IMG/VR virus record: IMGVR_UViG_3300006864_000001
Location: 1 to 58,659 of that record
Origin: a virus
Direction: 5' to 3' (one strand)
DNA: 58,659 nucleotides
This document shows positions 3,775 through 57,242 of this stretch, one piece after another. Position numbers and translations under genes: made by a program. Position 1 is the stretch's first letter, and each line of letters starts with the position of its first letter. Under the pieces are notes generated by a model, which was given only the letters and a program-made list of their open reading frames with translations, searched no databases and was not told the origin of the DNA.

Positions 3775-3803
3775 TTCATTATAGACCATGTTTTTCACGC
3801 GAA
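3775..3803 (-). promoter_or_regulatory. Conserved promoter-like motif, copy G
   Basis: Minus strand TTCGCGTGAAAAACATGGTCTATAATGAACCCC, matching the six other copies; sits right after hairpin 3804..3835. Confidence 0.5.
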
Positions 3804-8545: not shown

Positions 8546-10498
8546 TTAGCTGACGGTGACGGACATCCCGGCAAGAGAACCGGAGAAAGTGGGAACGAAC
8601 ACGTCACCCGGAACAAGCTTGAACCGGTAAAACACGCAACTTGCCGGGATCAACTGCGTGACACCATTGATCGTGAGCGCCGACAGCGTTCCGCCAGATA
8701 TCGCGAGTGTGACCTCGGCCTCACCGCCGTAAAGGTTGGTCCAGGTACCACCGGAAGCCGGCGGAGTGTGAACAGAAGACACCGGACCGCGGATACGCAG
8801 ACGGTCGTAGACTCGAACACCAGCGCCACCTGTGACCGGAACATTTCCGTAACCGTTGTTGGTGGTGCTGTCGTAGTTTCCGCCAGCGGTGATCGACCCT
8901 TCCATCAAGTTTCCAGGATCGTGAAGAACATCGGTGACACTCTCGTAGTCGATGCCAGAAATATCGCCCTTCACGACATTACCGCCAACGAATCCGGTGA
9001 CGCCAGACGGCATTGGCGAAACCGAGTAGCTGCAGTTCTCGGTCTTGATCTTGCTAAGGTCGAAGGAGTGCGCCATCGCCGTTCCGGAATATGGCCGAAT
9101 GGCGACGAAACAGTTGACCGCCGTTCCTTCAACACATGTCGCGTGCTCAGAAGGCATTGTTGCGTAAGGCAAGCCTTCTACAGACCATCGACCCATCTCT
9201 GCGATGGCGTTGTTGTTCGTATCCGGCATGCGACAACCACAAGCGGTCCTTGTGAGACTGCCGTAGTTCCCGAGCACCGGCCAAGCCGTTCCCGCAGGCA
9301 CCGTCGCCGCAGCCAGGTAACCCCAGTTCAGCATGGAGATCTCAGCCATGCCGAGCCAGTCGAAGCCCGTGAAACCGCAGTCCCTAGGCGCCATGATACC
9401 CACACCGTCAACACGAGTGTGCATGTTGCTGAACAGCGATGTGCCGCCACCGTATCCTGCGTAAGGACCACCGAAGACGCTGGGAGGACCGTAGGTGGAA
9501 TCGATGGTGCCGCCGCCAATTAGCACGACGATACCGCTACCATCCTCCTGCGGGTCTGTCTGCAGCCAGTGCGGAAGACTCGAAGCGTCGGAGTTCGTGA
9601 CGATAACGTTACGCCACTTGCGACTTGTCACCCCACGAGGAGCCATCGGGAACATCGCGTTGCCGGCAGTGCTTCCCCCAAGGACCGGAACGTCCGCAGC
9701 ACCGTAACCGTTCCCAAACAGGCAAAGCGCAGCTTCACGCCTTGAACCCGCCATGAATGTCCAGCTATCAGCTATCGCCGCTTTGATTGCCGGACTGGTG
9801 TTGGTACCGAACATGCAGCCGTGATTAGAGACGGTCGTACTGGCGTTGGCTGAGAGCACTGCTGTTGAATGGTCGGTTACGGAGACAATTGTGTGACCGT
9901 AGTAGTCACCGCCGCTTGGGCCGGCGCCGAAGATATAGACGAACTTGCCTCCCTCAATCGCTGTTGTGGTCAGTGGCTGAGTGGACGCGAATGACAAGAT
10001 GTTGCTACCAGCCGTGATCGACGCGTCACTGACGATAATCACATCGCCTTCGCCGTTGGGGTAATCCTCAGGCGCGAACTTGAAGTCCGATCGAAGAACG
10101 GCCGGCATGTTGAACTTCGTGACCGCACCACCTCCGCCACCAACACCGGCTTGCGGGGATGCCACAGCAAGATCCGACAGATTCTGATCGGGGCCATCCG
10201 TCGAAAGCAAGTTGAACGACCACGGCTGCGGGTTGCCGGGGCAATCATCGTAGTAGACGCGGTAGGACCAGCCCGGAGTCGCGTCATCGTTTTGTGGTCC
10301 GAGCAGGTCGTTCGGATATAGATTGACCACCGGCTTGCTGGTGCGATCGAACCAGACTGTCGCTTCAGTCATTTCGAGCAGCATGTGATTGACGGTATCA
10401 CTGACACGTTGCGATGGCACAAGCCGAATTCGGCCGGTCTTGAACTGGTTGCCGAATATATCGGCACTGTCAATTGTGACGGCGACCCTGTTTACCAT
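8546..10498 (-). CDS. Receptor-binding protein 1 (tailspike-like, Gly/Ser/Thr-rich C-terminal body; possible depolymerase)
   Basis: 650 aa. The N-terminal ~115 aa are paralogous to 11097..12278 (IDSADI..GR[IV]R[LI]VPS..LLEM..PNDL[LI]GPQ..PGW.Y..YYD[DE]CPG.P.PWSF). Confidence 0.7.
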   Translation of the reverse strand: MVNRVAVTIDSADIFGNQFKTGRIRLVPSQRVSDTVNHMLLEMTEATVWFDRTSKPVVNLYPNDLLGPQNDDATPGWSYRVYYDDCPGNPQPWSFNLLSTDGPDQNLSDLAVASPQAGVGGGGGAVTKFNMPAVLRSDFKFAPEDYPNGEGDVIIVSDASITAGSNILSFASTQPLTTTAIEGGKFVYIFGAGPSGGDYYGHTIVSVTDHSTAVLSANASTTVSNHGCMFGTNTSPAIKAAIADSWTFMAGSRREAALCLFGNGYGAADVPVLGGSTAGNAMFPMAPRGVTSRKWRNVIVTNSDASSLPHWLQTDPQEDGSGIVVLIGGGTIDSTYGPPSVFGGPYAGYGGGTSLFSNMHTRVDGVGIMAPRDCGFTGFDWLGMAEISMLNWGYLAAATVPAGTAWPVLGNYGSLTRTACGCRMPDTNNNAIAEMGRWSVEGLPYATMPSEHATCVEGTAVNCFVAIRPYSGTAMAHSFDLSKIKTENCSYSVSPMPSGVTGFVGGNVVKGDISGIDYESVTDVLHDPGNLMEGSITAGGNYDSTTNNGYGNVPVTGGAGVRVYDRLRIRGPVSSVHTPPASGGTWTNLYGGEAEVTLAISGGTLSALTINGVTQLIPASCVFYRFKLVPGDVFVPTFSGSLAGMSVTVS

Positions 10499-13388: not shown

Positions 13389-15059
13389 TTAATCCGTTTC
13401 TTGAAAGATATGGCCGCCGTCAGAATCATCCGATGGCTTGTCTCCAGCATTCATGACCGACAAATAGATGCCGAAGAATGCTGGAGTGATGATGAGAACC
13501 ACTGCGAAGACGCTCCCAGAAGCGGCGTCCACAAGTGCGGCCAGCACCACACTAGCTATGAGTTTGACTTTGTTCTGACGCAAAGCGCTTGCGAAGCTGA
13601 CCTTTCCCGCGGTCTTTGGCGTCACGTGGAACACACTTCCGCCAAATGTCGTCTTGAGCGACGCGAAGAGGCTGGCGAAATATACGGAACCGAACAGCGC
13701 CATCGAATGCAGAAGATAAGACACCAGCTTGCGTTTCGGCACGTGCCGCCACGTCAGGATGTCATTGAGCATTGGCGCAATCAGGAACGTCACTGTAGGA
13801 ATCAGCATCCACAACGGGAACTTGTTACTGAAATGCACCTCCGGGAATATGATGGCGTTGACGATAACGTACAAACTGAATACACCTGTCAACGGAAGGC
13901 TGAACGTGAAGAGGACGATGTCCAGCTTCTCGTACCATCTGAGTTGCTTGGAGAACAGAATCCGACCGGCATAAGTCCGGATGAATTCCATGTTGCCCTC
14001 GGTCCACTTCTTGTGGCGCTTCTCGAAGGCGAAGTAATCGACCGGGAATTCTTCACCGCAGAGAACGTCCTCCGCAAACTCCGTTCGGTAACCACCGCGC
14101 AGAGCATCGATGGCGAACCCGATGTCCTCGGCCACGATCTCTGGGAAACCACGAGCCGTCAGATATGCATCACGACTGACCATAGCACCGTGGCCTAGCA
14201 AAGACAGGAATCCGGCATGCGCCTTGACCTTCTGATATACAGGCCAGTGCGAATTCACTCCCGGAGCGAACATCTTCATGAATGATGTCCGATTACGTGT
14301 AGCAATGTGGTTTGCCTGGACGATACCGACACTTGGATCCTGGAAGTAGTCGAGGCAACGATCGATGAAGTTCGGCGGCAGCACCTCATCGGAGTCGACG
14401 ATGACGAAGTGATCCAGTCGTTGCCCAGCAGGGGACTGGAGGAAGTTATTCAAGTTTCCAGCCTTGAACCCCTTTGGCCGATTCGTTCGACGAATAACCG
14501 GGATTTTGTACATCCAAGCGAACCGATCAACACGTGCCTGGAACTCCGCCTTCGAGCTATCATCCAGGGCATAAACCTCGAAGTTTGGGTAGTTCTGCCT
14601 GATAGACAATCGAAGCGATTCTTCGCTAATGTCATTGCAGGTCACGTACAGCAGACCCACGAGCGGGCTACGACCTTGTGGACGTCGAGGAACCACTTGC
14701 TTCTTCCACGACGTGGCACGATAAGCGATTGGATATACTACGTCCTTCATACCATTGAGCCAGAAGTACATGATGAAGAGCGTCGTGGAAGAGACCGTAG
14801 CGCCGAGCAAGTCGCTTCGATTGAATGCTCCGCTGATGATTGGCGCCGCAGCCATCAGCATTGGGACGCATAGCAACGCCCACAAACCAACGATGCACCA
14901 GTACATGGTCGATGTTCGAGTTCGTACCCTAAACGCTTCCCGCGATATAGCGGGACGGGGCGTGAAGGTGGGACGCTGCAGTTCAGAAATGTTCCTGAGC
15001 TCTTTCAGCCCTTCGAATGGATCGTTTCTTACAGCCTCAAAAGGTCGGGTATTCGGCAC
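13389..15059 (-). CDS. Integral-membrane family-2 glycosyltransferase, processive synthase type (cellulose synthase / OpgH / PgaC-like)
   Basis: 556 aa. Motifs: YVTCNDI, LDDSS, RRTNRPKGFKAGNLNN, VDSDE, VAEDIGFA, RHKKWTEGN (plus QLRW downstream). TM helices flank the catalytic domain on both sides. Confidence 0.8.
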   Translation of the reverse strand: MPNTRPFEAVRNDPFEGLKELRNISELQRPTFTPRPAISREAFRVRTRTSTMYWCIVGLWALLCVPMLMAAAPIISGAFNRSDLLGATVSSTTLFIMYFWLNGMKDVVYPIAYRATSWKKQVVPRRPQGRSPLVGLLYVTCNDISEESLRLSIRQNYPNFEVYALDDSSKAEFQARVDRFAWMYKIPVIRRTNRPKGFKAGNLNNFLQSPAGQRLDHFVIVDSDEVLPPNFIDRCLDYFQDPSVGIVQANHIATRNRTSFMKMFAPGVNSHWPVYQKVKAHAGFLSLLGHGAMVSRDAYLTARGFPEIVAEDIGFAIDALRGGYRTEFAEDVLCGEEFPVDYFAFEKRHKKWTEGNMEFIRTYAGRILFSKQLRWYEKLDIVLFTFSLPLTGVFSLYVIVNAIIFPEVHFSNKFPLWMLIPTVTFLIAPMLNDILTWRHVPKRKLVSYLLHSMALFGSVYFASLFASLKTTFGGSVFHVTPKTAGKVSFASALRQNKVKLIASVVLAALVDAASGSVFAVVLIITPAFFGIYLSVMNAGDKPSDDSDGGHIFQETD

Positions 15060-19900: not shown

Positions 19901-20660
19901 TGATGACCAAATCTTCGTGGGATATGATCGAGTTAAGACGAGTGTTATCTTCGATCTTCGACAAGTCACCATCATGCTGAATTGCAACGAGCGGATTACC
20001 CCTAAACGCTTCCGTGGCAAACGGATTATTCGCGGTAGTTATAGCTTTCGCGTCGAACGCGGCGTAGTAACCGACGAACAACTGCTGCAGAATATTTAGG
20101 AACGTCGACTTGCCTGTCCCGGCCTCACCATACAACACGAAGAATTTCTGAATATGCCTAGAGTCGCCTGCTAGTATTGCACCGATTCCCCATTCGAGCT
20201 TACGACGCTCTTCGACAGAATATAGCACACTCATCAGACGATCGTACGCCACGATCGATCCATCTTCGATGGAATACGGCAAACGCTTTGAACTGTAATC
20301 CGCCTTCCTTGGCGGCGTATTTGCGAAGGCTAGCTTCGCGTCTAGATGATGGTTCGAATCCGGCAAGTTTCCGCAATAACTGCGAAATTCCTGCCATAGC
20401 TTGCTCCTGTAGCTCCCGAGAGTCCGAACGTGGACCGACACATCCGGACTCTCGAGTTCGTCAGCACGCTTGTAGAGATCGGCGTCAAGCAGTCGTTGGA
20501 CATCAAATTCATCCGTTGACCACAGGCCCGCTTCTTCATCCCAGATTGCATAGAAAGAGCCACCGCGAACCATCAGGTCGGACGAGCGGCGAACCGTAAA
20601 GTCTGGGTAAACCTCGACTCCACTCTTCGTCACCCGGTCTCTGACCTGATAGAAGTCCAT
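16944..20660 (-). CDS. Fusion replicase: SF3 (D5-like) helicase + AEP primase-polymerase + family B DNA polymerase with 3'-5' exonuclease
   Basis: 1238 aa. Walker A YGEAGTGKST. AEP motifs VVIDFDLK and EAGIHLHY. Exo I FYDVEVF, Exo II GFNNRKYDNHIL, Exo III YCANDV. PolB motif A LDVASMHPT, motif B KIVINIVYG, motif C HIKTDSI. Confidence 0.85.
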   Translation of the reverse strand: MDFYQVRDRVTKSGVEVYPDFTVRRSSDLMVRGGSFYAIWDEEAGLWSTDEFDVQRLLDADLYKRADELESPDVSVHVRTLGSYRSKLWQEFRSYCGNLPDSNHHLDAKLAFANTPPRKADYSSKRLPYSIEDGSIVAYDRLMSVLYSVEERRKLEWGIGAILAGDSRHIQKFFVLYGEAGTGKSTFLNILQQLFVGYYAAFDAKAITTANNPFATEAFRGNPLVAIQHDGDLSKIEDNTRLNSIISHEDLVINEKYKTTYTSKIFAFLFIGSNQSVRITDAKSGLIRRLIDVHPTGEKIPAEEYAATTAQIGFELGAIAYHCLRLYRRLGKNYYSTYRPVDMILRSDIFYNFMLSQFDLFKEQDGTTLLQAWNLYKAFCEESGYDWTLNRSKFRDELRNYFDKFEERARVDGVLIRSWFSGFKHDKLGPNLMMIKSEPSLVMDVETSLLDTLLADMPAQYANEDETPGRKWSNVKTTLAELDTSKIHYVKPGEQHVVIDFDLKGDNGAKSLEKNLEAASLWPATYAEFSKGEAGIHLHYLYDGDVSKLGRVFAEGIEVKIFTGEASLRRKLTKCNDIPVALITGGLPIKEEKMLDSKVIQSEQGLRALILKNLRKEIHPGTKSSVDFIWKILEDAFNSGLPYDVTDMRGRILAFANNSTNHSLYCVKTVMAMKFASESAQKSVEPEPMDERLVFYDVEVFPNLFVVCWKYAGDANVVKMLNPSGPAIEDLCKFKLVGFNNRKYDNHILYARVMGYSNEALFKLSQRIINGEQGSMFGDAYGLSYADIYDFSSKKQGLKRFQIELGLNHKELGHPWDCPVDEPLWVDVLDYCANDVITTEQVFEDRKQDFVARQILADMAGMSVNDTTQKLTARIIFGDDRRPQEKFNYTDLSELFPGYTYGFGKSEYKGEITGEGGYVYAEPGMYSNVAVLDVASMHPTSIELLDLFGPYTKNFADLKAARIAIKRKDYTAARKMLSGALEPYLNSEDDATALSYALKIVINIVYGLTSASFDNPFRDPRNKDNIVAKRGALFMIDLKEAVQKQGFKVVHIKTDSIKIPDATPEIVNFVMEFGQQYGYDFEHEETYSKFCLVNDAVYVAKKHDGTWTATGAQFQHPYVFKTLFSKEPLNYHDFTETKTVTTALYLDFGDGEPRFVGRAGAFVPVLAGTGGGTLLRGKDGAFHAASGTKGHFWKEAHVLKFGIDEELEESIDMSYFTKLVDAAVTNISNYGDFEWFTS

Positions 20661-23372: not shown

Positions 23373-24029
23373 TTATGTTATCGGTTGAGTGCGGGGAAGA
23401 ATTAGCAGATATCCGCCGCGAATTGCGCGAACGCTAGCGCTGCGAAGGTCGTACCATCCCCACTTGTCGTCGGTGAATTCCCCTGAAATACCGACTAGGT
23501 CGTAGAGATCGTTGACCGTAGCAACATCGTACTTGTCGATCAGAAATCGAAGACGATCTAGAACATCTTCGGCATCCCCTCGAGATTCAAGGATAATGTC
23601 ACTGAAGTCATGCGTAGTTCGTGCTTGACGAGTCATCGTGCGTTGTGGTGTTGACTGCGGTTGAGCACGACTGTGGTTAGTGTATCCGGGTCGACTGCCT
23701 TGTGTTGCCCGAGGCCGAATATCGCCAAACATGAGTCGTTCAACGCCCTGACTGACAGCGTCGCTGATCATGTTTTTGGCCGCTGGAACGAGAACTTCCA
23801 TGACGACATATTGAACGACCGAGTTTGAACTTTCGCTGAAGAACGTTTCGTAAATCTTCGAACCGACGCCCTTTTTACGGGTAACGACATCACCGGTGAC
23901 GATTTTTTCTTGCTTCGGCTTGTCTTCCTCAGGGTCGATTCTAGCCCGCTTGGAGTTTGACGGATAGTCGACCTTGACTGTTCGTTGGCGACCCCCGCCC
24001 ACGTCAACATTCATCATTCCATCAGTCAT
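23373..24029 (-). CDS. Hypothetical protein
   Basis: 218-aa ORF; the C-terminal RGDAEDVLDRLRFLIDKYDVATVNDLYDLVG...GGYLLILP segment looks conserved. Confidence 0.6.
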   Translation of the reverse strand: MTDGMMNVDVGGGRQRTVKVDYPSNSKRARIDPEEDKPKQEKIVTGDVVTRKKGVGSKIYETFFSESSNSVVQYVVMEVLVPAAKNMISDAVSQGVERLMFGDIRPRATQGSRPGYTNHSRAQPQSTPQRTMTRQARTTHDFSDIILESRGDAEDVLDRLRFLIDKYDVATVNDLYDLVGISGEFTDDKWGWYDLRSASVRAIRGGYLLILPRTQPIT

Positions 24030-24231
24030 TGTCGTTCTCCATCGTCAGATATTCCTCGATTTCTTGGGCCATCTGATGACAGGTCTCCACGGCTTCTCGT
24101 TCATTAGAAGTAGTGGGCTCTGCTGACTTTAGCATTGGCCGCAACTCTTCTTCAAGAGTAGCCCTGGCGTAAGCGAATGATCCGTAGTTCTCACGCAGTT
24201 CTTCAAACCTGCTTGGAGGTGTTATCTTCAT
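24022..24231 (-). CDS. Small acidic protein, tandem paralogue of 24228..24428
   Basis: PSRFEELRENYGS aligns with KSRFQLLKHRYGS; both end in EY.(L/T). Confidence 0.5.
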   Translation of the reverse strand: MKITPPSRFEELRENYGSFAYARATLEEELRPMLKSAEPTTSNEREAVETCHQMAQEIEEYLTMENDND

Positions 24232-25897: not shown

Positions 25898-26248
25898 TTA
25901 GCGGGGCTTGGAAACGAATCGCTTCAGGTCCTTCGGGACGCGGAAGGCAGCGTTTAGTATGGCGATGGCAGCGACTGCGCCAAGGACCACACCAGCGCCA
26001 CATGCCGCGGCTACGATGACCGTGTTAGTGACTTTCCTGGGCTTGGCCATGGGTGGCTCCTTATCAGGTGGATTGGGGTTCATTATACCCCTTGTAATTC
26101 TCGCGAGTTCGCGCCGAAGCTTTGCATGCTGCGTCTTTGGGAGGGGCTTTCCAGTGAACCGCAAATATGCACGTCCGACAATCCGCGTGATGATGTACGG
26201 CCAGATTAGCCAGAATATGAATGCCCCAACGGTCGGGAACAGCTTCAC
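25898..26248 (-). CDS. Membrane protein (two TM segments); start uncertain
   Basis: Only the 3' third of ORF 25898..26707 looks coding (FPTVGAFIFWLIWPYII..., VIVAAACGAGVVLGAVAAIAIL). An alternative start is MAKPRK at 26050, which has an AAGGAG RBS. Confidence 0.4.
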   Translation of the reverse strand: MKLFPTVGAFIFWLIWPYIITRIVGRAYLRFTGKPLPKTQHAKLRRELARITRGIMNPNPPDKEPPMAKPRKVTNTVIVAAACGAGVVLGAVAAIAILNAAFRVPKDLKRFVSKPR

Positions 26249-26255
26249 AATCCAG

Positions 26256-27071
26256 CTAGAGCTTGGAGTACGCCTCGATTGGAAGACCAGCGTATCCCAC
26301 AGCCAGACACGGGCGGTTGTCTGCAGAGATGTGGCTCGAGAAGACAATCTGGACCGTATGCTCGATGTTGAATCCAAGTGCATCGCCGAGAGTTGTCGAA
26401 TCCAGCCCCAGAAGTCTCCAGAACTCGTTGAGGGAAGCATACAGGTCCTGAAATATGCTCGCGTTGATGTCATTCGCGCAACGCCGGATCGTCTCTGCGT
26501 CACTTTTGAAATACCGACCTGACAACGTCTCGTAGCATAGTTGATCACCCCCGCTGGTGATGATGACCTGCGAGTCCTTGACCGGATTCTCCTCGATGTG
26601 CCTCTGCACCACCGCATCGTGGACCTTCCCCGCTTTGGTGACGCCGATCTGCTTGACGACCTCGTCCTTGTATTCCCGGAAAGCTGTGTCGGCGAGGGTA
26701 TAGGCACCCAGCAGTGCCGCGTTGCGCCTCAAGCCGATCTGGTTCGCGCCGATGATGCAAGCGATGGTTGCTGTGCCGGAGATTGCGGCTGGCAAATATA
26801 GCTTCCAGGTTGCCTGTACGATCTCCTTACTCGTTAGAGGAACATAATCGTCGACAGGGATGCCTTTTGTATGTGCATCTGCCTGAGCTTCAGTCCAGAC
26901 GTTCTTCGAGATCTCTGCTTCGCTGACGGAAACCGTAGCCTTCGGAGTCGCCTTGACCGCTAGGACAACAGTACCGACAACACCGGCCACGGCCATTCCT
27001 GAGAGAATCGTCGGCGAATTCATGCCGATCGAACGCGCGATTCGACGCGCTAGTATTGGAATTTGCATCAT
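26256..27071 (-). CDS. Membrane-anchored protein (DUF6353-like), paralogue of 22083..22955
   Basis: ORF 26256..27191; start at MMQIPILARR (GGAGAA RBS). Confidence 0.6.
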   Translation of the reverse strand: MMQIPILARRIARSIGMNSPTILSGMAVAGVVGTVVLAVKATPKATVSVSEAEISKNVWTEAQADAHTKGIPVDDYVPLTSKEIVQATWKLYLPAAISGTATIACIIGANQIGLRRNAALLGAYTLADTAFREYKDEVVKQIGVTKAGKVHDAVVQRHIEENPVKDSQVIITSGGDQLCYETLSGRYFKSDAETIRRCANDINASIFQDLYASLNEFWRLLGLDSTTLGDALGFNIEHTVQIVFSSHISADNRPCLAVGYAGLPIEAYSKL

Positions 27072-27175
27072 TTCTCCATGAATTTGACTAGCTTGTCGAA
27101 CTTGGAAATCGCTTCCCAGAACCTGTCGGCGTCGTGGTCTGCTACTTCGACGTCCATCTCGACTGAGAATTTCAT
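27068..27175 (-). CDS. Tiny acidic protein (35 aa)
   Basis: Read by eye: MKFSVEMDVEVADHDADRFWEAISKFDKLVKFMEK; overlap-coupled at both ends. Confidence 0.3.
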   Translation of the reverse strand: MKFSVEMDVEVADHDADRFWEAISKFDKLVKFMEK

Positions 27176-27312
27176 GACACTTCGTACCCATCCCAGTCGA
27201 TGAGACCGTTCAGGTACGCCTCGGATAGCGCGTAGCAGCCAAAATGCTCGTCGACATTTTCGCGGTTGGTTCGAAGGGCGGCGAGGCTGTCTTCATTCAT
27301 GGCGATGTACAT
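27172..27312 (-). CDS. Small protein (46 aa)
   Basis: Read by eye: MYIAMNEDSLAALRTNRENVDEHFGCYALSEAYLNGLIDWDGYEVS, with a GAAGGAG RBS. Confidence 0.4.
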   Translation of the reverse strand: MYIAMNEDSLAALRTNRENVDEHFGCYALSEAYLNGLIDWDGYEVS

Positions 27313-27364
27313 AATTGCTCCTTCATGAAACTATGAGCCCTTGTTTAAGGGCTCTGATAGCTTG

Positions 27365-27553
27365 TTACTCGTTCTCGTTCTCGGGTGCGATGGACTGCTT
27401 GACGTGGTTGTGGATGCGGTCGATGAGGACGCTCGCGACTCCGGCCAGCACGATAGACACGACTGTTGCGGTAACAGCAGCTGTGACTTCGCGCTTGCGG
27501 GAGTTGGCGGGGATTTCCTCGACGACGGTTCCTTCAACGGTATCTTCGGGCAT
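27365..27553 (-). CDS. Small membrane protein
   Basis: 62 aa with an AGGAGAG RBS, about 40 nt downstream of promoter-motif copy A; TM helix AAVTATVVSIVLAGVASVLI. Confidence 0.55.
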   Translation of the reverse strand: MPEDTVEGTVVEEIPANSRKREVTAAVTATVVSIVLAGVASVLIDRIHNHVKQSIAPENENE

Positions 27554-27583
27554 GTGAATCTCTCCTAAAATACGGTGACGGGT

Positions 27584-27612
27584 TTCATTATAGGCCGTGT
27601 AAAAGCTGCGAG
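27584..27612 (-). promoter_or_regulatory. Conserved promoter-like motif, copy A
   Basis: Minus strand CTCGCAGCTTTTACACGGCCTATAATGAAACCC, followed by an RBS and ATG. Confidence 0.6.
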
Positions 27613-27613
27613 G

Positions 27614-27775
27614 CTAGATGGGCTTGGTCTCCTTCAGCTTCTCGGTGAACTGCTGAATGGACGGCGTTACGGCCTTGGCGACAGCGGCGCACACGAGCCT
27701 GGTCGCGTAGATCGAAACTACGACCTTGATTACAGTCTTCGCTTTGATTGTGATGATTATCTTTTCTGTGTACAC
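27614..27775 (-). CDS. Possible small protein (53 aa) downstream of copies B and C
   Basis: Read by eye: (V)YTEKIIITIKAKTVIKVVVSIYATRLVCAAV...; weak RBS. Confidence 0.25.
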   Translation of the reverse strand: MYTEKIIITIKAKTVIKVVVSIYATRLVCAAVAKAVTPSIQQFTEKLKETKPI

Positions 27776-27887
27776 GACGTTACTCACTTTCTAGAAGTTA
27801 AAATAAGAAGCCAAGTCGTGAACTTGGGTGCATCTTCGTACTCCTCATGGGAGTCCAGTCGTGAGCTGGAATGCGGCTATGTACTTC

Positions 27888-27916
27888 TTCATTATAAGCC
27901 GTGTAAAAGCTGCGAG
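27888..27916 (-). promoter_or_regulatory. Conserved promoter-like motif, copy B
   Basis: Minus strand CTCGCAGCTTTTACACGGCTTATAATGAAGAAG. Confidence 0.55.
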
Positions 27917-27999
27917 CTTATAATGAAACCCACATAATCGTTAACTCCTCTAAAGAGGTGATCGACCTTCCCTAAAGGGATGATCGCGATTATATGGGC

Positions 28000-28028
28000 T
28001 TCATTATAGGCCGTGTAAAAGCTGCGAG
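28000..28028 (-). promoter_or_regulatory. Conserved promoter-like motif, copy C
   Basis: Minus strand CTCGCAGCTTTTACACGGCCTATAATGAAGCCC; abuts the stop of 28030..28407. Confidence 0.55.
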
Positions 28029-28029
28029 C

Positions 28030-28407
28030 TTATTCTGATACTACAGCCTTACCCAACTTCTTGAAAATGCGGCCTTTTACGTCAGGAAGTTTTCCAGCCA
28101 AATTTTCTGAAATTCTAGCTGGAGAAACTTTTAGTTCACGTGCGGCTTGTCCCTGACTAGCGTAAATAATTCCCGTAGTCATGTCCTGAATGATGTTCCC
28201 CGGATCACCCAGAGCTTCCACGAACACTTCAACCGTTTGCTTAGACTTCCAAGTAAGAACCTGAAACTGACGAACATTGGAAAGGGACGTCTTCGGTGCT
28301 ATAAGCAGCGTTACTCCAGCGCATACTGCTCCAGTTATCACGCATGAAATGTAAATTCTCTTGTTTTCGTCGAAGTACTTTTTGATTTTTTCAAGATGTG
28401 TTTTCAT
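28030..28407 (-). CDS. Membrane-anchored protein with a C-terminal NUMOD1-like HTH
   Basis: 125 aa. TM helix IYISCVITGAVCAGVTLLI, then IYASQGQAARELKVSPARISENLAGKLPDVKGRIF, which resembles the NUMOD1 pattern. Confidence 0.55.
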   Translation of the reverse strand: MKTHLEKIKKYFDENKRIYISCVITGAVCAGVTLLIAPKTSLSNVRQFQVLTWKSKQTVEVFVEALGDPGNIIQDMTTGIIYASQGQAARELKVSPARISENLAGKLPDVKGRIFKKLGKAVVSE

Positions 28408-28476
28408 TTTGCCCTCGAGTTCTCTGACTGAAATATGAAAACCTTAAGCCCGTGTTAGGGGCTGTTGGATTAACTG

Positions 28477-28650
28477 CTACTTAGTAATCTTGTTCTTTCG
28501 GTTGCGAAGGGTGCGAATTCCTTCAACACTCCAGTCGTAGCCGAGCTTGCCGATTCCGTAGACGCCATATGATAGGGCGACTCCGGCAGCGACGAGCACG
28601 ACAACTTCTTGAGCGCTGATTTTATTAGCTTGCTCTTCGGTTTCGTCCAT
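28477..28650 (-). CDS. Small membrane protein (57 aa)
   Basis: Read by eye: MDETEEQANKISAQEVVVLVAAGVALSYGVYGIGKLGYDW... AAGGAG RBS about 12 nt after copy D. Replaces the spurious ORF 28470..28763. Confidence 0.5.
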   Translation of the reverse strand: MDETEEQANKISAQEVVVLVAAGVALSYGVYGIGKLGYDWSVEGIRTLRNRKNKITK

Positions 28651-28670
28651 GACGTTCTCCTTAGTAGGGG

Positions 28671-28699
28671 TTCATTATACCCCATGTAAATCCTGCGAG
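28671..28699 (-). promoter_or_regulatory. Conserved promoter-like motif, copy D
   Basis: Minus strand CTCGCAGGATTTACATGGGGTATAATGAACCCC. Confidence 0.6.
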
Positions 28700-28800
28700 A
28701 CAAACTCTTAGACCCCACGTAAAACAGTACCCCGTGTCTGCAATGGAGGGACATAGCAGACACGGGGTACTGGTTCGAGGGCCGCGGTTAGGCGGTGGTG

Positions 28801-29106
28801 TCAGATCTTGATCTTCGGGATGAAACTCAGGCCTTTGGAGGTGATCACGTTGGCCTTCTCAAATCCGAGGATCAGAAGTACGCCGACGATACTGCCGCCC
28901 ACGGAGAGCATCGTGTCTGCGCTCAATCGGTTAGGTGCATCGGTAGCTTCATCAAGCTGCCGAGCCTCGACGAGCACTTTCAAGTTGCTCACCATGGTGG
29001 TGTATTCTTCGGTATCTGGGTTCTGATCGCTCATCAATGAGATGACGCGAGTGATCTCATCTTCGAGATCTGAGGGTGTATCGTTCTTGGATTCGCGATT
29101 AAACAC
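28801..29106 (-). CDS. Membrane protein (C-terminal TM helix)
   Basis: 101 aa, GTG start, with an AAAGGAAAA RBS directly after copy E. Confidence 0.6.
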   Translation of the reverse strand: MFNRESKNDTPSDLEDEITRVISLMSDQNPDTEEYTTMVSNLKVLVEARQLDEATDAPNRLSADTMLSVGGSIVGVLLILGFEKANVITSKGLSFIPKIKI

Positions 29107-29126
29107 GGTTTTCCTTTCGGTTAGCT

Positions 29127-29155
29127 CTCACTATACGCCGTGTTTTTCTCGCGAA
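29127..29155 (-). promoter_or_regulatory. Conserved promoter-like motif, copy E (divergent, TATAGT)
   Basis: Minus strand TTCGCGAGAAAAACACGGCGTATAGTGAGAGC. Confidence 0.5.
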
Positions 29156-29282
29156 TATAAGTCTCTATGCACGGGACACGCTAGATCCCGAATAATCACC
29201 CATTTGCCATTCGCCCAAGTCGCATCGCCACACGTGCAGTTTGCTGGCCTGCTCGGCGGCAAAGTTGTCGGTTCGCTGTCAG

Positions 29283-29609
29283 TCATGAGGGCTTCACCTC
29301 GAGAGTGATAACGCTTTTCCCAGCGATCTCGCTGATTGGCGTCGTAAGCTCCAGACTGTAGAGATCCTTGATCGGGTGACTTTTGTCGACGACGAGATTT
29401 CCATCTGTCACCGGCGAAAAACCCGAACTCGAGATCGCCAGCACGGCGCCCAGAAACGTGTCGAGTGCGCCAATGGACCCGATTACTTGCGTGGTGTCGT
29501 GGAATCCCCAGATAGACGCCACTGTGAAATATAGCGTGCCCAACGCCGGGAGCCAGACCTGCGCGATGCTTTTGAGCACATCGTAAAATGGGCTGCTGAA
29601 TTTGATCAT
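29283..29609 (-). CDS. Holin, Dp-1 family-like
   Basis: 108 aa. FYDVLKSIAQVWLPALGTLYFTVASIWG...GSIGALDTFLGAVL resembles the Dp-1 holin signature. Confidence 0.7.
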   Translation of the reverse strand: MIKFSSPFYDVLKSIAQVWLPALGTLYFTVASIWGFHDTTQVIGSIGALDTFLGAVLAISSSGFSPVTDGNLVVDKSHPIKDLYSLELTTPISEIAGKSVITLEVKPS

Positions 29610-29628
29610 GATTTTCCTTGAATATGAG

Positions 29629-30006
29629 TTATCCGTGACGTAGACTTATCAGCCACGTAATCAACGCTGATACCGCGACGGCAGCGCTGAGCATGATGGC
29701 CACGCGAGACAACGGAGACCATCGTTTTTCTGTCGTATCGCGAAGGGTCGTTCGCTGATTCTCCACTGCTTCTGCGGTGGATTTGCGTTCAGCTTCAACG
29801 GCCATAGCTGTAGTAGCTACGATTCTTTGATTCGAATCGACCGCATCCGTCAAGCGTTGCAAGTCCATTCGAAGACCGACGAGCTCAGCTTTAACCAAAG
29901 TCAATTGACGCGCGACTTCAGCTTGCGAGCCGTTGATTTTCTCGAAGTGATCATCGTGTCCTTGCAGACGCTGATCTTGAATTCCCCGATCATATTCGTC
30001 GCTCAC
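29629..30006 (-). CDS. Coiled-coil protein with a C-terminal TM anchor (lysis-associated candidate)
   Basis: 125 aa, GTG start with an AGAGAGG RBS; C-terminal helix VAIMLSAAVAVSALITWLI. Confidence 0.55.
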   Translation of the reverse strand: MSDEYDRGIQDQRLQGHDDHFEKINGSQAEVARQLTLVKAELVGLRMDLQRLTDAVDSNQRIVATTAMAVEAERKSTAEAVENQRTTLRDTTEKRWSPLSRVAIMLSAAVAVSALITWLISLRHG

Positions 30007-52264: not shown

Positions 52265-52487
52265 GAGTTCACCCCCAGTTACAAGGACTTTCGGAGTAGT
52301 TACAGATTGGCCCAGTAAGAGGCGCGGGAACATCTTGTGCCTGCAGTGCTGGGGTGCTGGCGAAGCTAGCGACGAAACGGGGTCGGCAAGTCACTAGCCC
52401 AAGGGAAATCCCGCTCCTCCTACTGAGGCAACCTGTAACCTCGCATGAGAAACATGGACTCTAGTAGAACCTACCAAAGGAGAAGCT

Positions 52488-52697
52488 ATGGCTATGCCCA
52501 CAGAATGTCAAACTCCTGGCGCGCAGTTCCACACAATCACCAGCGATGAAAAGCTACTTGTGTCAGTCGACTTTGGGAGACGTCTCAACCTCAGCGAGGA
52601 AGAGGCCGTCCTTCTGGAGACGAATGTCCACAACGCTTTGGAGTTGGTGCTTGCCCGGTACTACACCAAGAGTTACCGTTCTGGCCGAACCACGTAG
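52488..52697 (+). CDS. Hypothetical protein; the only plus-strand gene
   Basis: 69 aa with an AAGGAG RBS 5 nt before the ATG, followed by its own rho-independent terminator. Confidence 0.55.
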   Translation: MAMPTECQTPGAQFHTITSDEKLLVSVDFGRRLNLSEEEAVLLETNVHNALELVLARYYTKSYRSGRTT

Positions 52698-52717
52698 ACC
52701 CGAAGCCGGTTAAGAGT

Positions 52718-52805: not shown

Positions 52806-52922
52806 CGGCTCCAGGTGGGCCGACCTTCGGCCAATTTTTCCGCCGGGGCATTTTTGTGGACAGCGGCGATGCATAGGGGGGGAGCTGTTTTGCGATAGGC
52901 CCCCCCTCTACCCTTCAACGAC

Positions 52923-53183: not shown

Positions 53184-55862
53184 CTAGCCTCCTTTACGAT
53201 GAAGAGCAGCATCTAGTGTGCTGACTGGAATACCCAGTGAATCGGCTACTTCGGCCTGCGTAAAGCCAGACGCGAGCCGTGCTTCTGCTAGCGCTAGCTT
53301 AGAAGGAGTTACTTCTAGAGTGGCGCGAGGTGTTGCTAGTTCTCTAATTCGTTCCGTGTTTGCGTTCTCGAGAATGCTACGCAGCCTGCTAGTTGTAATA
53401 GCGCCAGCCTGTATAGCAGCCCATTGTTGATCGGTTATGTGGATCTCTTGCTTCTTAGCGCCAACGCGATCGCGAGCAGTGTTTAGTGCCTGACCTTTAA
53501 TCTTTTTAAGGTTGGCGTTCTCCATGCCCGGGTTGTCCCTGATCTTCGCTGCCACCATGGCATTGGCTAGCAACTGCGCTTGCCGTTCTAGTGGCTTGTT
53601 CTTGAGCGCTAGATTAAGGGCGCTATTCAGTTGTGCCACTTCATGCTTGTACGTTAGCGCTGCACTATTCGAGTAATCGATGCGACCTGTAGCGAGTGCT
53701 TCTTTACGAGCAGAGTTGGCCAACGCTTTCAACCTGTTAGAGTGGTTAGCGTAGACCTCTTCTATGGGCATGCCTGACGACAAGGTGTGCGCGTTGTTAG
53801 TCTCGAGCAAAGGCTTGGACGTTGTCAACTTAACAACTGTTTTGCCAGTGTTCTTGTTAACATAACTAGCGCCAGTCTGGACATAGATCTTCTCACCAGA
53901 CTTGGGGTCCACGGATCCGCCTTGTGAGGCCTTACGCAGAACCTTCTCAGGAACCTTAATTGCAGCGTTACCTGATCTGGAGATGATAGTTGATGCGCCT
54001 GCTAGACGACCAGACTTGCCTCGTCCTTGATAGGTCTCTTTGAGCGAGGCTATGCCGTTGTCTACGTATGACTGCCGATAGTTAAGATTGTGTTTCTCGG
54101 CATCGATGACGACCATCGAATGACGAACGGCTCGAGCGAGCTCGTCATTCCTGGCGCCCTTGATTGTCATATCCGTGATAAGGTTTGAGACGTCGCCCAT
54201 TTGCTGCTGCTTAGCTCTTGCCGTCATCGGTACCATACCGGGGTACTCTTTATACGCCTCTTTAGGGTCGAAGTTTTCTAGCCCTTTAAGTGGCGATGTA
54301 GTTTTTAGTTCTCGCTTATCGTTGGGAATGACGAGCACTGTGTCCCCGTCGAAGTCCGCACCAGATAGGCGTTCTGCTACCTTAGGATGAATACCGATAG
54401 CGTCACGAGCTTCGCCGATAGTTGATCTTGATTCGGCATGCTTATTATTTACTCGCACTTCAGGGATCTCAAAAGTTCCCCCATGCGGGAAACGCACCAA
54501 AGCGACAGTAGTACCGTTCCTGAAGTTGGGCGCGTAAACCTCATTTTCTTTCAGCGATTCGATAGGTAGAATAACTCGAGTCGCTTGACCCGGCAAAGCC
54601 GCAGCCTTAAGATGAACAGACGCAGACTCTGCCCCATCAGCAAAAGACTCCAAGAGTTTCTGCTTGACAACGGGGTTTGTCAGCTTTGATATTTCATCGA
54701 ACTCATCTACTCTTGATTTGTAGGCGAGATCGAGTTGTCGTTTTGCTAGACCGGTACTCTGCTTCGCCAAGACCTGACTTGACAGTGAACGAGACCAATC
54801 GTTCCAATCGCCTTCTTCGTTAACGACATTCATCGGTGACTGATGTTGTTTACCATCTTTACCGAGATACGTTTTCTGCCGAACAGTTGCGCCGAACGGG
54901 TTCTCTTCGTCCGACTGCTTCTTCATGGTGTCGAGCTTGTTGCCCGTGTCATGCTTGTTCGTGTTGAACTGAAGGTCGACTCCTGCTGGGAGACCATCTT
55001 TGTACATGGCCATACCTTTAAGGTAATGTGTGCCATCGACAGCGATTCGAACTTGTGCATATCTGGATGTCCCAAGTGAAATATCGGGAACACCAGGACG
55101 AACATAGATAACGCCGTCGGCATTTGTGCCGCCTTGTTCTGCGTAGCGAATTCCGATTCTCTTGGAATCCACGTTGACCGGAGGTTTGACACCGATATAT
55201 GAAAGACCACCATCTTCGCTGTATGCGGCAACGGTCTTGATCTTGTCTGGGTTCTTTACGATGTCCACATATTTAGTTCCTGGTGGAGCAAGAACTTTAA
55301 TTGTGGTTTTCTTATTACCGCCAACCCCAACGTTCGGCGCCTGAATTTTGTGAACTTCGTAACCTCGCTCTTGAAGCAAAGCGACGGCGGTTGAAAGTTT
55401 AGTCTTGCTGATCGCTAGATGATTTTCGGTTCCTTCGCCGATATCGAGATAGCTGCCATCAGCAAGCTTGTCCTTAAGCATGTTCGACGTCGACATCAGA
55501 ACATTGCGCTTCTCCGTAAGCGCTGGATTAAGCAAAGAACGAACCGAAGACTCGTTGATGCCCATTCGTTCGCCAATGGCGACATTGGACATACCTTTAT
55601 TCTTCAGCCGTAGCGCTTGTGCGGCATCGGCTTTCTGCGTTTCGTTCTTAGCGATCGATTTGGCAGCACGAAGTTGCGTGGTAGTGATGCCAAGACCTTT
55701 GGCGATATTGGTGTCTGTCACGCCTTTGGTTTTGAGCTCTGCTACGTAGCCCAAGAAACCGCGATTATGTTCTTGTGGTTCGAGACCCGACCCCCACGGA
55801 TATCGGCCAGATCGGCGAAGGACGCCATAGTGAAGCAGTTCGTCAGCAGCAGCGTCAGCCAT
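53184..55862 (-). CDS. Candidate single-subunit two-barrel RNA polymerase (YonO / RdRP-like) with N- and C-terminal HTH domains
   Basis: 892 aa. LKGMAMYKDGLPAGVDLQFNTNK (beta-like barrel), VALVRFPHGG and SGADFDGDTVLVIPND (DxDGD metal loop). HTHs at VTDTNIAKGLGITTTQL, MSNVAIGERMGINESSV and FTQAEVADSLGIPVSTL. N-terminal LLHYGVLRRSGRYPWGSG. The CDS itself is certain; the confidence refers to the function. Confidence 0.6.
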   Translation of the reverse strand: MADAAADELLHYGVLRRSGRYPWGSGLEPQEHNRGFLGYVAELKTKGVTDTNIAKGLGITTTQLRAAKSIAKNETQKADAAQALRLKNKGMSNVAIGERMGINESSVRSLLNPALTEKRNVLMSTSNMLKDKLADGSYLDIGEGTENHLAISKTKLSTAVALLQERGYEVHKIQAPNVGVGGNKKTTIKVLAPPGTKYVDIVKNPDKIKTVAAYSEDGGLSYIGVKPPVNVDSKRIGIRYAEQGGTNADGVIYVRPGVPDISLGTSRYAQVRIAVDGTHYLKGMAMYKDGLPAGVDLQFNTNKHDTGNKLDTMKKQSDEENPFGATVRQKTYLGKDGKQHQSPMNVVNEEGDWNDWSRSLSSQVLAKQSTGLAKRQLDLAYKSRVDEFDEISKLTNPVVKQKLLESFADGAESASVHLKAAALPGQATRVILPIESLKENEVYAPNFRNGTTVALVRFPHGGTFEIPEVRVNNKHAESRSTIGEARDAIGIHPKVAERLSGADFDGDTVLVIPNDKRELKTTSPLKGLENFDPKEAYKEYPGMVPMTARAKQQQMGDVSNLITDMTIKGARNDELARAVRHSMVVIDAEKHNLNYRQSYVDNGIASLKETYQGRGKSGRLAGASTIISRSGNAAIKVPEKVLRKASQGGSVDPKSGEKIYVQTGASYVNKNTGKTVVKLTTSKPLLETNNAHTLSSGMPIEEVYANHSNRLKALANSARKEALATGRIDYSNSAALTYKHEVAQLNSALNLALKNKPLERQAQLLANAMVAAKIRDNPGMENANLKKIKGQALNTARDRVGAKKQEIHITDQQWAAIQAGAITTSRLRSILENANTERIRELATPRATLEVTPSKLALAEARLASGFTQAEVADSLGIPVSTLDAALHRKGG

Positions 55863-56936: not shown

Positions 56937-57242
56937 TTATGTGGGACTATCCGCCCAGATTCTATTGCCGCATGAGCACTCCCATCGATGCGTGTGCAAT
57001 CCGGCGTCGTAACCTTTATAGACGGTGTGCGAATGAGAATGCGTTGAGGGCTTCACTGGTTCAGCAGGCTTTGCGTTGGGATCTGGGTTTGGATTAGGTC
57101 GTCTGTGTTTTGGCTGTTTGATGACAAAACCAATCGGTTCGATAAACTTAGAGAATGAGCTCAAAATGAGCAAGCATTCTCTATCTTCTATTATAGGCCA
57201 TGTAATTCCTGCGAGGACTCGACCATGGTCGACTATGTACAA
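56937..57242 (-). CDS. Possible His/Cys/Pro-rich protein; 5' end doubtful
   Basis: ORF with a TTG start and no RBS. Promoter-motif copy F lies inside its 5' third, so the true start (if any) is probably downstream of 57180. Confidence 0.3.
   Translation of the reverse strand: MYIVDHGRVLAGITWPIIEDRECLLILSSFSKFIEPIGFVIKQPKHRRPNPNPDPNAKPAEPVKPSTHSHSHTVYKGYDAGLHTHRWECSCGNRIWADSPT
57186..57215 (-). promoter_or_regulatory. Conserved promoter-like motif, copy F (head of the nuclease/RNAP operon)
   Basis: Minus strand CTCGCAGGAATTACATGGCCTATAATAGAAG. Confidence 0.55.

Follow-up and report, generated by a model that had tools for sequence, protein, structure and literature searches.

A conserved, gene-oriented motif in a siphophage genome as a candidate promoter for its two-barrel RNA polymerase

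That a phage polymerase may have promoters of its own is known from other systems. In Thermus phage P23-45, gp96 and gp64 are single-polypeptide two-barrel polymerases, each tied to a conserved motif of its own, and both start sites and ChIP-seq occupancy have been measured (Chaban et al. 2024, PMC10770324). YonO of the Bacillus prophage SPbeta, a single-chain two-barrel phage polymerase of about 100 kDa with a DxDGD loop, initiates at a single mapped site ahead of one late operon, and the promoter sequence there is undefined (Forrest et al. 2017, PMC5467207). A further polymerase family exists as a bioinformatic proposal only: it is the signature of a whole phage group and the only transcription-type protein conserved across that group, and HHpred supports its two-barrel assignment (Koert et al. 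2021, bioRxiv 10.1101/842583). In the literature that we searched, no promoter is reported for this family, nor are 5'-end, enzyme-assay or binding data for any of its members. Nothing relevant came up there for cluster AM promoters, actinobacteriophage two-barrel polymerases, phage 1706 or literal motif strings, and an RNA-seq study of Rhodococcus phage WC1 concerns an unrelated cluster. We describe here a candidate promoter for this common family.

The window, that is, the whole stretch of 58,659 nt that we analyzed, is a complete, permuted, cos-type siphophage genome belonging to the lineage of Arthrobacter clusters AM/AU, Streptomyces BI, Gordonia DJ and the Lactococcus 1706-like phages. 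Megablast of positions 26000-30000 against GenBank phages gave no match, so that there is no close cultured relative. The genome contains nine copies of a signal of about 35 bases, eight on the minus strand and one on the plus strand. A first-pass annotation had listed seven (27584-27612, 27888-27916, 28000-28028, 28671-28699, 29127-29155, 3775-3803 and 57187-57215); all seven are present on the minus (gene) strand, but the count was too low, copies at 26079-26107 (minus) and 52440-52468 (plus) having been overlooked. Scanning both strands bears out the strand bias while raising the number to nine. The motif is real and far beyond chance: a 20-nt core pattern allowing up to 3 mismatches finds six matches against 0.02 expected from 100 shuffles, and a position-weight scan returns eight minus-strand sites at 35.6-46.4 and one plus-strand site at 17.8, with no further site in the window scoring 10 or more. 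The copies and the units that follow them are listed below.

29127..29155, minus strand: motif copy TTCGCGAGAAAAACACGGCGTATAGTGAG, 23 nt before the GTG start of a 101-aa membrane protein
28801-29106, minus strand: 101-aa membrane protein gene with GTG start, downstream of copy 29127
28721..28772, minus strand: terminator-like hairpin read from the sequence, 17-bp stem at 28725-28772 followed by TTTT at 28721-28724
28671..28699, minus strand: motif copy CTCGCAGGATTTACATGGGGTATAATGAA, directly 3' of the terminator-like hairpin and 23 nt before a 57-aa membrane protein
28477-28650, minus strand: 57-aa membrane protein gene, downstream of copy 28671
28000..28028, minus strand: motif copy CTCGCAGCTTTTACACGGCCTATAATGAA; a structured non-coding RNA lies downstream
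27924..28002, minus strand: 79-nt candidate small RNA, its start being the first base after the hexamer
27888..27916, minus strand: motif copy CTCGCAGCTTTTACACGGCTTATAATGAA, followed by a leader of about 100 nt and then a 57-aa ORF
27811-27827, minus strand: leader hairpin and T-run after copy 27888, at the end of the leader
27614-27787, minus strand: 57-aa ORF beyond the leader of copy 27888
27584..27612, minus strand: motif copy CTCGCAGCTTTTACACGGCCTATAATGAA, 33 nt before a 62-aa membrane protein
27365-27553, minus strand: 62-aa membrane protein gene, downstream of copy 27584
26079..26107, minus strand: motif copy CTCGCGAGAATTACAAGGGGTATAATGAA, newly recognized, 31 nt before a 50-aa membrane protein
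25898-26050, minus strand: 50-aa membrane protein gene, downstream of copy 26079
3775..3803, minus strand: motif copy TTCGCGTGAAAAACATGGTCTATAATGAA, 24 nt before an 82-aa ORF
3505-3753, minus strand: 82-aa non-membrane ORF, downstream of copy 3775
57187..57215, minus strand: motif copy CTCGCAGGAATTACATGGCCTATAATAGA, head of the nuclease/exonuclease/RNA-polymerase operon
53184..55862, minus strand: 892-aa two-barrel single-subunit RNA polymerase (from catalytic loop and fold comparison), proposed reader of the motif
52440..52468, plus strand: diverged ninth copy CTCGCATGAGAAACATGGACTCTAGTAGA (hexamer TCTAGT); an AAGGAG ribosome-binding site follows after 14 nt
52488..52697, plus strand: 69-aa ORF, the only plus-strand gene of the window, downstream of the ninth copy
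52859..52906, minus strand: cos junction of the physical genome ends at about 52859/52860, from alignment to the right/left ends of Circum and Scap1

Every copy is oriented into genes, and seven lie 23-33 nt before start codons or before compact RNAs. The clustered copies had each been said to precede a small membrane-protein gene; this holds for copies 29127, 28671 and 27584, and likewise for the new copy 26079, but non-coding sequence follows copies 28000 and 27888, and a non-membrane ORF follows the isolated copy 3775. At the four copies heading membrane-protein genes, the hexamer lies 23-33 nt from the start codon, and the encoded proteins reach a maximum 19-residue hydropathy of 1.8-2.5. 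The hairpin-then-promoter layout proposed earlier does exist once the copy labels are corrected: it is clearest at copy 28671, where the hairpin at 28721..28772 separates the 101-aa gene from the next motif copy, and a 14-bp hairpin lies about 55 nt upstream of copy 57187. The latter copy is indeed the one at the head of the polymerase operon; it is followed by a conserved leader hairpin and is the positional orthologue of the copy that relatives carry some 900 nt ahead of the polymerase gene. The 69-aa ORF downstream of the plus-strand copy has no Pfam match and is followed by an intrinsic-terminator-like hairpin (52717-52739) with a T6 run (52740-52745). According to the motif scan of the window, no copy lies in or before the structural gene block of about 23 kb.

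Conservation extends without a break over some 35 nt and holds across host phyla. The parts of the block, in order, are a yTCGCr box lying some 15 nt before the hexamer, a run rich in A, an ACA, a G/C spacer of 5 nt, the TATAAT-like hexamer itself and a run of purines. Among the conserved features are ACA, the G/C character of the spacer, which persists in a genome of 33% GC, and a stretch of 8 nt after the hexamer made up of purines only. Eight of the nine window copies, and most copies in relatives, have TATAAT or TATAGT. Changes at the second position of the hexamer recur: besides TCTAGT in the ninth window copy, we observed TGTAGT twice in Streptomyces phage Scap1, TCTAAT in three positional orthologues and TTTAAT in one, and YTTTAT in the five copies of Faecalibacterium phage FP_oengus with a readable ACA register (CTTTAT four times, TTTTAT once). 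All seven FP_oengus copies contain TTTATGG, and position 2 is never A there. Across copies the hexamer does not conform to the sigma-70 TAnnnT pattern with its near-invariant A2 and T6, and position 2 is dispensable in well-placed copies.

Comparison with a sigma-70/sigma-A promoter (-35 TTGACA, 17 nt, -10 TATAAT) reveals a shared commonest hexamer and a G/C-rich flank. No -35 element is present 16-19 nt upstream of the hexamer, where bases are not conserved; the single copy reported by a sigma-70 consensus scan is a chance one (TTGTCT), and scan totals do not exceed those of shuffled sequences. The TTTACA-like element sits only 5 nt from the hexamer and, as the first-pass annotation correctly stated, is no -35 element. 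Neither is there an extended -10 (TGn), since the spacer reads yGGss or yACCC and the conserved T-G-G lies two positions too far upstream.

The layout resembles that of the T7, T3 and SP6 promoters, which are likewise single contiguous conserved blocks (about 23-35 bp), strictly oriented and repeated through the genome, with a TATA-like AT-rich melting segment, a purine-rich initial sequence and no -35/-10 spacing. The T7 promoter starts right after TATA (TATA, then GGGAGA), and here the start would fall right after the hexamer. Differences are that those phages use a Pol I-fold enzyme and not a two-barrel relative of QDE-1, YonO and cellular polymerases, and that the present motif is longer, has a separate upstream TCGC box and is unrelated in sequence; a 9-nt identity between TATAGTGAG and the T7 promoter complement is in the wrong orientation and we regard it as coincidence. 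An N4-like hairpin promoter (GGGG...CCCC around the hexamer) was rejected as well, the stems being 3-4 bp with loops of 9-11 nt and missing in many copies. Cluster A stoperators and cluster K start-associated sequences are also short, many-copy, single-orientation intergenic motifs of actinobacteriophages. However, stoperators are 13-bp repressor sites of temperate phages and start-associated sequences abut start codons, whereas our motif has a melting hexamer, can precede non-coding RNAs in addition to genes, and accompanies a polymerase gene among lytic phages.

Some copies precede non-coding RNAs without a ribosome-binding site. The 79-nt candidate RNA of copy 28000 is predicted to fold into a three-way junction closed by a 16-bp stem that involves nucleotides 1-16 (minimum free energy -39.4 kcal/mol, z = -7.45) and has no Rfam match. 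In nine such units, drawn from five genomes, the predicted RNA has a closing stem whose first base directly follows the hexamer, and a T-run follows the 3' half of the stem in all except copy 28000 and the unit at 1730 of metagenomic relative L002 (7 of 9). These RNAs would thus provide a hint to the start site, which is weakened by the fact that the inverted repeat reaches into the hexamer in at least the unit of copy 28000. An Rfam search of 27500-28100, encompassing copies 27584, 27888 and 28000 and the RNA, returned nothing at E <= 1, and the sole gathering-level match in the rest of the window is an unrelated Pistol ribozyme. The RNAs following the motif in Lactococcus phage P092 contain D-arm-like and T-arm-like strings, but ARAGORN finds no tRNA among them.

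The 892-aa protein is truly an RNA polymerase of the two-barrel kind. It matches phrog_4291 (E = 0) and, weakly, the Pfam RdRP domain, and its GADFDGD loop (residues 501-507) is invariant in 49 homologues. A search of PDB sequences with the family profile yielded only weak helix-turn-helix (HTH) matches, which made a fold comparison necessary. Foldseek searches with the AlphaFold model (pLDDT 79.7) return QDE-1 (E = 1.5e-9), the non-virion phage polymerases gp64/gp62 (E = 5e-7) and RDR2 as best PDB matches, with large subunits of cellular polymerases ranking next. The protein combines two double-psi beta-barrels with a DxDGD metal loop, as do enzymes of the QDE-1/YonO/gp64 kind, although sequence similarity to YonO is undetectable by simple search. 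A T7-type right-hand fold is absent: Foldseek matches two-barrel enzymes only, and there is no Pfam T7-RNAP domain. The chain also carries an N-terminal HTH at about 78-115 and a C-terminal HTH resembling sigma-70 region 4 at about 858-889. The family counts 250 cultured-phage records and no fewer than 8000 metagenomic proteins, including a metagenomic cluster 100% identical to the polymerase of the window.

A phage polymerase with an intact catalytic site is thus encoded in a motif-bearing genome, and the association extends to relatives. An exact scan of IMG/VR for TCGC-N8-ACAYGG-N2-TATAATGA gave no match, the motif being too variable, and relatives were therefore reached through the polymerase protein. 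Every polymerase-carrying relative examined has the motif architecture on its gene strand: Scap1, Arthrobacter phage Circum, Gordonia phage Untouchable, P092 (33% GC), FP_oengus and the metagenomic relatives L001 and L002. Motif and polymerase further co-occur in 80 IMG/VR loci (31-58% GC), where we counted 43 strict motif matches on the plus strand versus 5 on the minus strand. A copy is present at -820 to -1060 from the polymerase start in 24 of 53 loci with enough flank, as compared to 0 on the reverse strand and 1 in shuffled sequence, using a weight matrix for which some of these very sites had served as input. When the window is aligned with relatives that have polymerases of 87% and 76% identity, the block is nearly invariant and its flanks have diverged; for copy 3775, the orthologous copy of L001 is nearly identical between diverged flanks. 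We found no close relatives lacking the polymerase. The whole motif, beyond the hexamer alone, is co-inherited with the polymerase across phages of Actinobacteria and Firmicutes. The same comparative argument, a motif present where the polymerase is present, applies to P23-45, whose gp64 family is among the best Foldseek matches. Here, however, motif sequences differ, the pairing of motif and enzyme is proposed from sequence, the enzyme has HTHs fused at both termini, and its gene lies at the extreme right genome end. Unlike YonO with its one late operon, the present polymerase would be served by a nine-copy motif located before non-structural genes.

The first-pass annotation had left a choice between a phage-specific promoter and a host sigma-A -10 element embedded in an operator, and the evidence favors the former: the polymerase is genuine, the whole motif is co-inherited with it, position 2 is dispensable in well-placed copies, and -35 and TG elements are lacking. 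The motif with its strand bias and positions, its co-inheritance, the fold and catalytic loop of the polymerase and the missing sigma-70 features are observed here, and from them we infer the reading enzyme, the start site and the role of the HTHs; the polymerase is proposed as the reader by elimination, being the only transcription-type protein conserved across the phage group. The motif is thus probably (we estimate about 0.6) a promoter peculiar to this lineage and recognized by the 892-aa two-barrel, single-subunit polymerase that the phage itself encodes. One or both of the fused HTH domains would dock upstream, on the yTCGCr box and the A-rich run with ACA; the G/C-rich 5-nt spacer would act as a clamp and the AT-rich hexamer (TATAAT or TATAGT) as the melting region. 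RNA synthesis would begin on, or immediately beside, the purine that comes first after the hexamer (GAA, GAG or AGAAG), in a compact geometry that is T7-like rather than sigma-70-like. Copies downstream of the tail genes would drive small membrane-protein genes and short structured RNAs, and the others one later gene, the nuclease/exonuclease/polymerase operon and the reverse-oriented gene at the left genome end.

The main rival is use by host sigma-A: the copies would be strong early -10-only promoters, the TCGC box, A-run and ACA would be an operator or activator site, possibly for the HTHs of the 892-aa protein, and the phage polymerase would use another promoter, for instance for late genes, as YonO does. 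The commonest hexamer is a perfect sigma-70 -10 consensus and, a missing -35 element being frequent among actinobacterial sigma-A promoters, host recognition of many copies is plausible. The small membrane-protein arrays resemble early or host-takeover genes, the structural block has no motif, and YonO, the one bacterial relative that has been studied, relies on a single late promoter, which by analogy may also speak against a multi-copy promoter here. Moreover, the motif heads the polymerase operon itself, which fits a "host enzyme first" scheme and poses a bootstrapping problem for the phage enzyme, requiring a virion-borne enzyme, read-through or weak host recognition. We nevertheless consider sigma-A use unlikely. 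Position 2, the key A(-11) of sigma-70, is C, G or T in well-conserved and correctly placed copies; no -35 or TG extension is found even in P092, from a Lactococcus host in which sigma-A normally requires one; and sigma-A does not explain the cross-phylum conservation of the spacer, ACA and purine run, nor predicted RNAs starting at the base after the hexamer, sigma-70-type starts lying 6-8 nt further downstream of it.

A combination of both enzymes might solve the bootstrapping problem that arises from the conserved copy located some 900 nt before the polymerase gene: sigma-A would fire weakly early on, bootstrapping the polymerase from copy 57187, and the polymerase would then take over through the upstream box, with positive feedback. 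This would also explain why host-like hexamers predominate although position 2 is not strictly required. The scheme is purely inferential, however, and the FP_oengus copy upstream of the polymerase operon, TTTTAT, offers no usable -10 element. We know of no precedent for two polymerases sharing one site with different start-site geometries, and we hold such dual use to be improbable. Finally, the motif might not be a promoter at all, and instead be a repeated protein-binding or RNA-level element, such as a pure operator, a recombination or mobile repeat, or a leader akin to the cluster K start-associated sequences. The block does run into the 5' leader (ACCCCTACGAAAGGA) in many copies, and its TCGCAA box has a counterpart at the right genome end. 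Yet the copies are strictly oriented with genes, intergenic and often right after terminator-like hairpins, they precede RNAs devoid of a ribosome-binding site, and an AT-rich hexamer set between G/C is a typical melting site. The known mobile repeat that the first-pass annotation had allowed for is not seen either: the 27500-28100 stretch matches no curated Rfam family, and there are no target-site duplications, inverted or otherwise transposon-like termini. A non-promoter role is thus very improbable.

A defined candidate promoter of about 35 nt, with clade-specific variants and a predicted start site, makes the activity and specificity of this polymerase testable. It also bears on a question left by the YonO work, that is, whether a minimal two-barrel polymerase recognizes a promoter unaided, and may yield small orthogonal parts for gene expression in Actinobacteria and lactic acid bacteria. 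More speculatively, and with some doubt on our part, the 892-aa protein could be a self-sufficient "one-polypeptide holoenzyme", whose fused sigma-region-4-like HTHs would read a bipartite promoter (yTCGCr box plus ACA-N5-hexamer) and start right after the hexamer, the pair having long been co-inherited by siphophages of Actinobacteria and Firmicutes. In that case, core and specificity functions would be naturally fused in a single chain, which would make for a new orthogonal transcription system.

The right genome end, adjacent to the cos junction, carries a conserved element made of a G-run, TCGCAA and a C-run (52876-52906), so that the TCGCAA box of the motif also occurs at this end of the genome.

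The five clustered motif copies described in the first-pass annotation were recovered exactly on the minus strand of positions 27400-29400. Its count of seven was too low: unreported copies stand at 26079 (minus strand) and 52440-52468 (plus strand). The former came to light in a search with a 20-nt core pattern, which, at up to three mismatches, returned 6 sites in the window where shuffled sequence would give 0.02. A weight matrix built from aligned motif copies scored eight minus-strand sites at 35.6-46.4 (27584, 27888, 28000, 28671, 29127, 26079, 3775 and 57187) and a single plus-strand site, 52440-52468, at 17.8; all other window positions scored below 10. The window consensus is yTCGCrnGwwwwwACAyGGnnTATAATGAA. 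Since the minus strand holds all large ORFs, the eight strong copies are co-oriented with the genes, as had been proposed for the reported ones. The ninth faces the opposite way, 14 nt upstream of AAGGAG and the sole plus-strand gene. The structural gene block has no copy.

Features near motif copies in the window
52488-52697, plus strand: sole plus-strand gene, a 69-aa ORF with a hairpin plus T6 at its end
28721-28772, minus strand: 17-bp hairpin plus TTTT, between copy 28671 and the gene putatively driven by copy 29127

That each clustered copy precedes a membrane-protein gene, as first suggested, holds for 29127, 28671 and 27584, and also for the new 26079: start codons of 50-101-aa proteins, each with one strongly hydrophobic segment, lie 23-33 nt downstream. 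It does not hold for 27888, which is followed by a leader of about 100 nt with a terminal hairpin and T-run and then by a 57-aa ORF, nor for 28000, which is followed by no ORF and instead by a 79-nt sequence (27924-28002, minus strand; predicted fold -39.4 kcal/mol, z = -7.45) whose closing stem is predicted to begin at the first base past the hexamer. Copy 3775 stands before the gene of a soluble protein of 82 aa, and copy 57187 heads the operon containing an exonuclease (55855-56460) and the 892-aa polymerase. The conserved leader downstream of copy 57187 may be a regulatory 5' structure: it forms a hairpin (57100-57186, minus strand; z = -3.6), and its sequence, AGAAGATAGAGAATGCTTGCTCAT..., is shared with two metagenomic relatives (L001, ~9117-9200; L002, ~8910-9000).

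Profile matches and a predicted structure identify the 892-aa protein as an RNA polymerase. It matches phrog_4291 (E = 0) and, weakly, Pfam RdRP PF05183, carries an HTH at each end (HTH_23 at 78-110, Sigma70_r4_2 at 864-889) and contains GADFDGD, invariant in 49 homologues. Fold comparison of its AlphaFold model (pLDDT 79.7) found QDE-1 (E = 1.5e-9), the non-virion polymerases gp64/gp62 from phages of the P23-45 type (E = 5e-7) and plant RDR2, with cellular polymerase large subunits next; the family profile, run against PDB sequences, returned HTH matches only. That this protein is a putative polymerase, and that it is the signature of a supercluster of actinobacteriophages together with phages of Lactococcus and Faecalibacterium, was earlier put forward by Koert et al. 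(bioRxiv 10.1101/842583), in whose work no analysis of promoters is reported. The family comprises 250 GenBank phage records and at least 8000 metagenomic proteins.

We compared the motif across polymerase-carrying genomes and loci only. It is present in metagenomic relatives whose polymerases are 87% and 76% identical, where orthologous copies are near-invariant against diverging flanks, and in the phages listed below.

Motif copies in polymerase-carrying phages
Streptomyces phage Scap1 (61% GC): five copies, cTCGCAAgTTTTACAnnnnnT(A/G)TAGTGAGACCCC
Arthrobacter phage Circum (45% GC): about 10 copies, TCGCGTAAATTACAnGGGsTATAAT
Gordonia phage Untouchable: nine copies, CTCGCAnnnATTACACryCCTATAATGAGACCCCTAyGAAAGGA
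Lactococcus phage P092 (33% GC): twelve copies, TTTTACAyACCCTATAATGA, without the TCGC box
Faecalibacterium phage FP_oengus: seven copies, ACGCGAAAAAtACAnnnnnYTTTATGGAAG

Every genome has its copies concentrated in the array of small genes behind the tail genes, with sporadic ones in the replication region; copies also lie ahead of the nuclease-polymerase operon. Of the strict matches in 80 IMG/VR loci (31-58% GC), 43 lie on the gene strand and 5 on the opposite one. Among the 53 loci with enough flank, 24 have a copy 820-1060 nt upstream of the polymerase start (reverse strand 0, shuffled 1), and FP_oengus likewise has one at about -900. The string TATAGTGAG, found in Scap1 (23780-24100) and in window copies, coincides over 9 nt with the T7 promoter read in reverse complement; its orientation is opposite to that of the genes, and we set the likeness aside as coincidence.

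We regard the motif as probably the promoter of the phage polymerase (probability about 0.62), a reading drawn from sequence comparison and predicted structures. The HTH-fused polymerase is the only transcription-type protein common to all these phages (Koert et al., bioRxiv 10.1101/842583) and so, by elimination, would be the reader. The hexamer TATAAT is nevertheless the host consensus. Actinobacterial promoters, moreover, often lack a -35 element. A host sigma-A promoter combined with a conserved phage operator still seems unlikely: neither a -35 nor a TG extension is found, the Lactococcus phage included, and conservation runs continuously through the TCGC box, A-run, ACA, a 5-nt spacer rich in G/C and, past the hexamer, an 8-nt stretch of purines only. 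Sigma-70-type factors flip out the A at hexamer position 2 (-11), yet some otherwise excellent copies have C, G or T there: TCTAGT in the window, TGTAGT in Scap1, and TCTAAT and TTTAAT among the copies at the conserved -900 position. In FP_oengus this base is never A. What is most stable across phyla is the upstream elements and hexamer T3/A4, which are not sigma-70 determinants.

The polymerase-promoter reading has its weak points. The structural block lacks copies, and the polymerase operon would be transcribed from the polymerase's own putative promoter, which calls for a virion-borne enzyme, for read-through or for weak recognition by the host. Because of these weaknesses we rate that reading no higher, and grant that host and phage polymerases might both use the motif, which is improbable, or that it is a non-promoter element, which is very improbable.

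Some copies appear to drive short non-coding RNAs with very stable predicted folds.

Putative motif-driven short non-coding RNAs
Window: 27924-28002, minus strand
Gordonia phage (L087): 21317-21395 and 27669-27755
Lactococcus phage P092 (L006): 20092-20174 and 20480-20562
Further locus L038: ~3115-3206

Most have paired 5' and 3' ends followed by a T-run. Strings resembling a tRNA T-arm, GGTTCGA(G/T)(T/C)CC, occur in the Gordonia and Lactococcus RNAs; ARAGORN called no tRNA among these RNAs, and Rfam gave no match for them. In nine non-coding units past the motif (window copy C, 28000-28028; Gordonia 21303 and 27655; P092 20078, 20466 and 24332; L038 3101 and 3401; L002 1730), the closing helix of the predicted RNA starts with the base that directly follows the hexamer, and a T-run follows its 3' half in all except window copy C and L002 1730 (7/9). 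Such a helix at the hexamer edge is rare where coding sequence lies downstream. A transcript starting 6-8 nt further downstream could not form the predicted P092 terminator stem; this need for a start near the hexamer points to a T7-like geometry that would place the hexamer at about -6 to -1, with the caveat that at window copy C the inverted repeat reaches into the hexamer too.

In function the motif is like T7-class promoters and like the pairs of motif and polymerase in P23-45 (Chaban et al. 2024, PMC10770324); unlike T7, the enzyme here is two-barrel with fused HTH domains. The promoter of YonO (Forrest et al. 2017, PMC5467207) is undefined, whereas here a multi-copy motif is available. 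The literature searched neither prints the motif strings nor discusses promoters of this phage group. The main value of the motif is that it opens a widespread but uncharacterised family of polymerases to direct testing.

The window is a whole siphophage genome encoding terminase, portal, tape measure, primase-polymerase, helicase and a fused protease-capsid protein, in the layout of Arthrobacter clusters AM and AU, from which the fused capsid-protease and the small membrane-protein array after the tail genes are known (Klyczek et al. 2017, PMC5513430).

42517-44583, minus strand: fused prohead protease (Peptidase_S78) and major capsid protein (Phage_capsid), a single 688-aa gene, as in AM/AU

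Relatives carry the polymerase gene at the right end, as their last large gene. Window segment 52935-52790 aligns over the right-end/left-end junction of Circum and Scap1, which indicates that the window is a circular permutation; by this alignment, the physical genome ends lie near 52859/52860. Adjoining this cos junction (52876-52906, minus strand) are a G-run, (C)TxTCGCAA and C-run element and then TGCATCGCCG; the window, Circum and Scap1 share this conserved element at the right end of the genome. With its TCGCAA core it looks like the upstream box of the motif, and the same HTH protein might possibly bind the genome end. A perfect TTGACA, 17-nt spacer and TAGCTT (52483-52511, minus strand), directed at the structural genes from the divergent left-end region, may serve the motif-less structural block as a host-type promoter; statistically it is not separable from chance. 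The replication/non-structural arm encodes a 556-aa family-2 glycosyltransferase (13389-15059, minus strand) with no match in PHROG. Between two small minus-strand ORFs, the sequence at 4989-5040 (minus strand) matches the Pistol self-cleaving ribozyme (RF02679) at Rfam gathering level (42.6 bits; threshold 34.5) over the full model.
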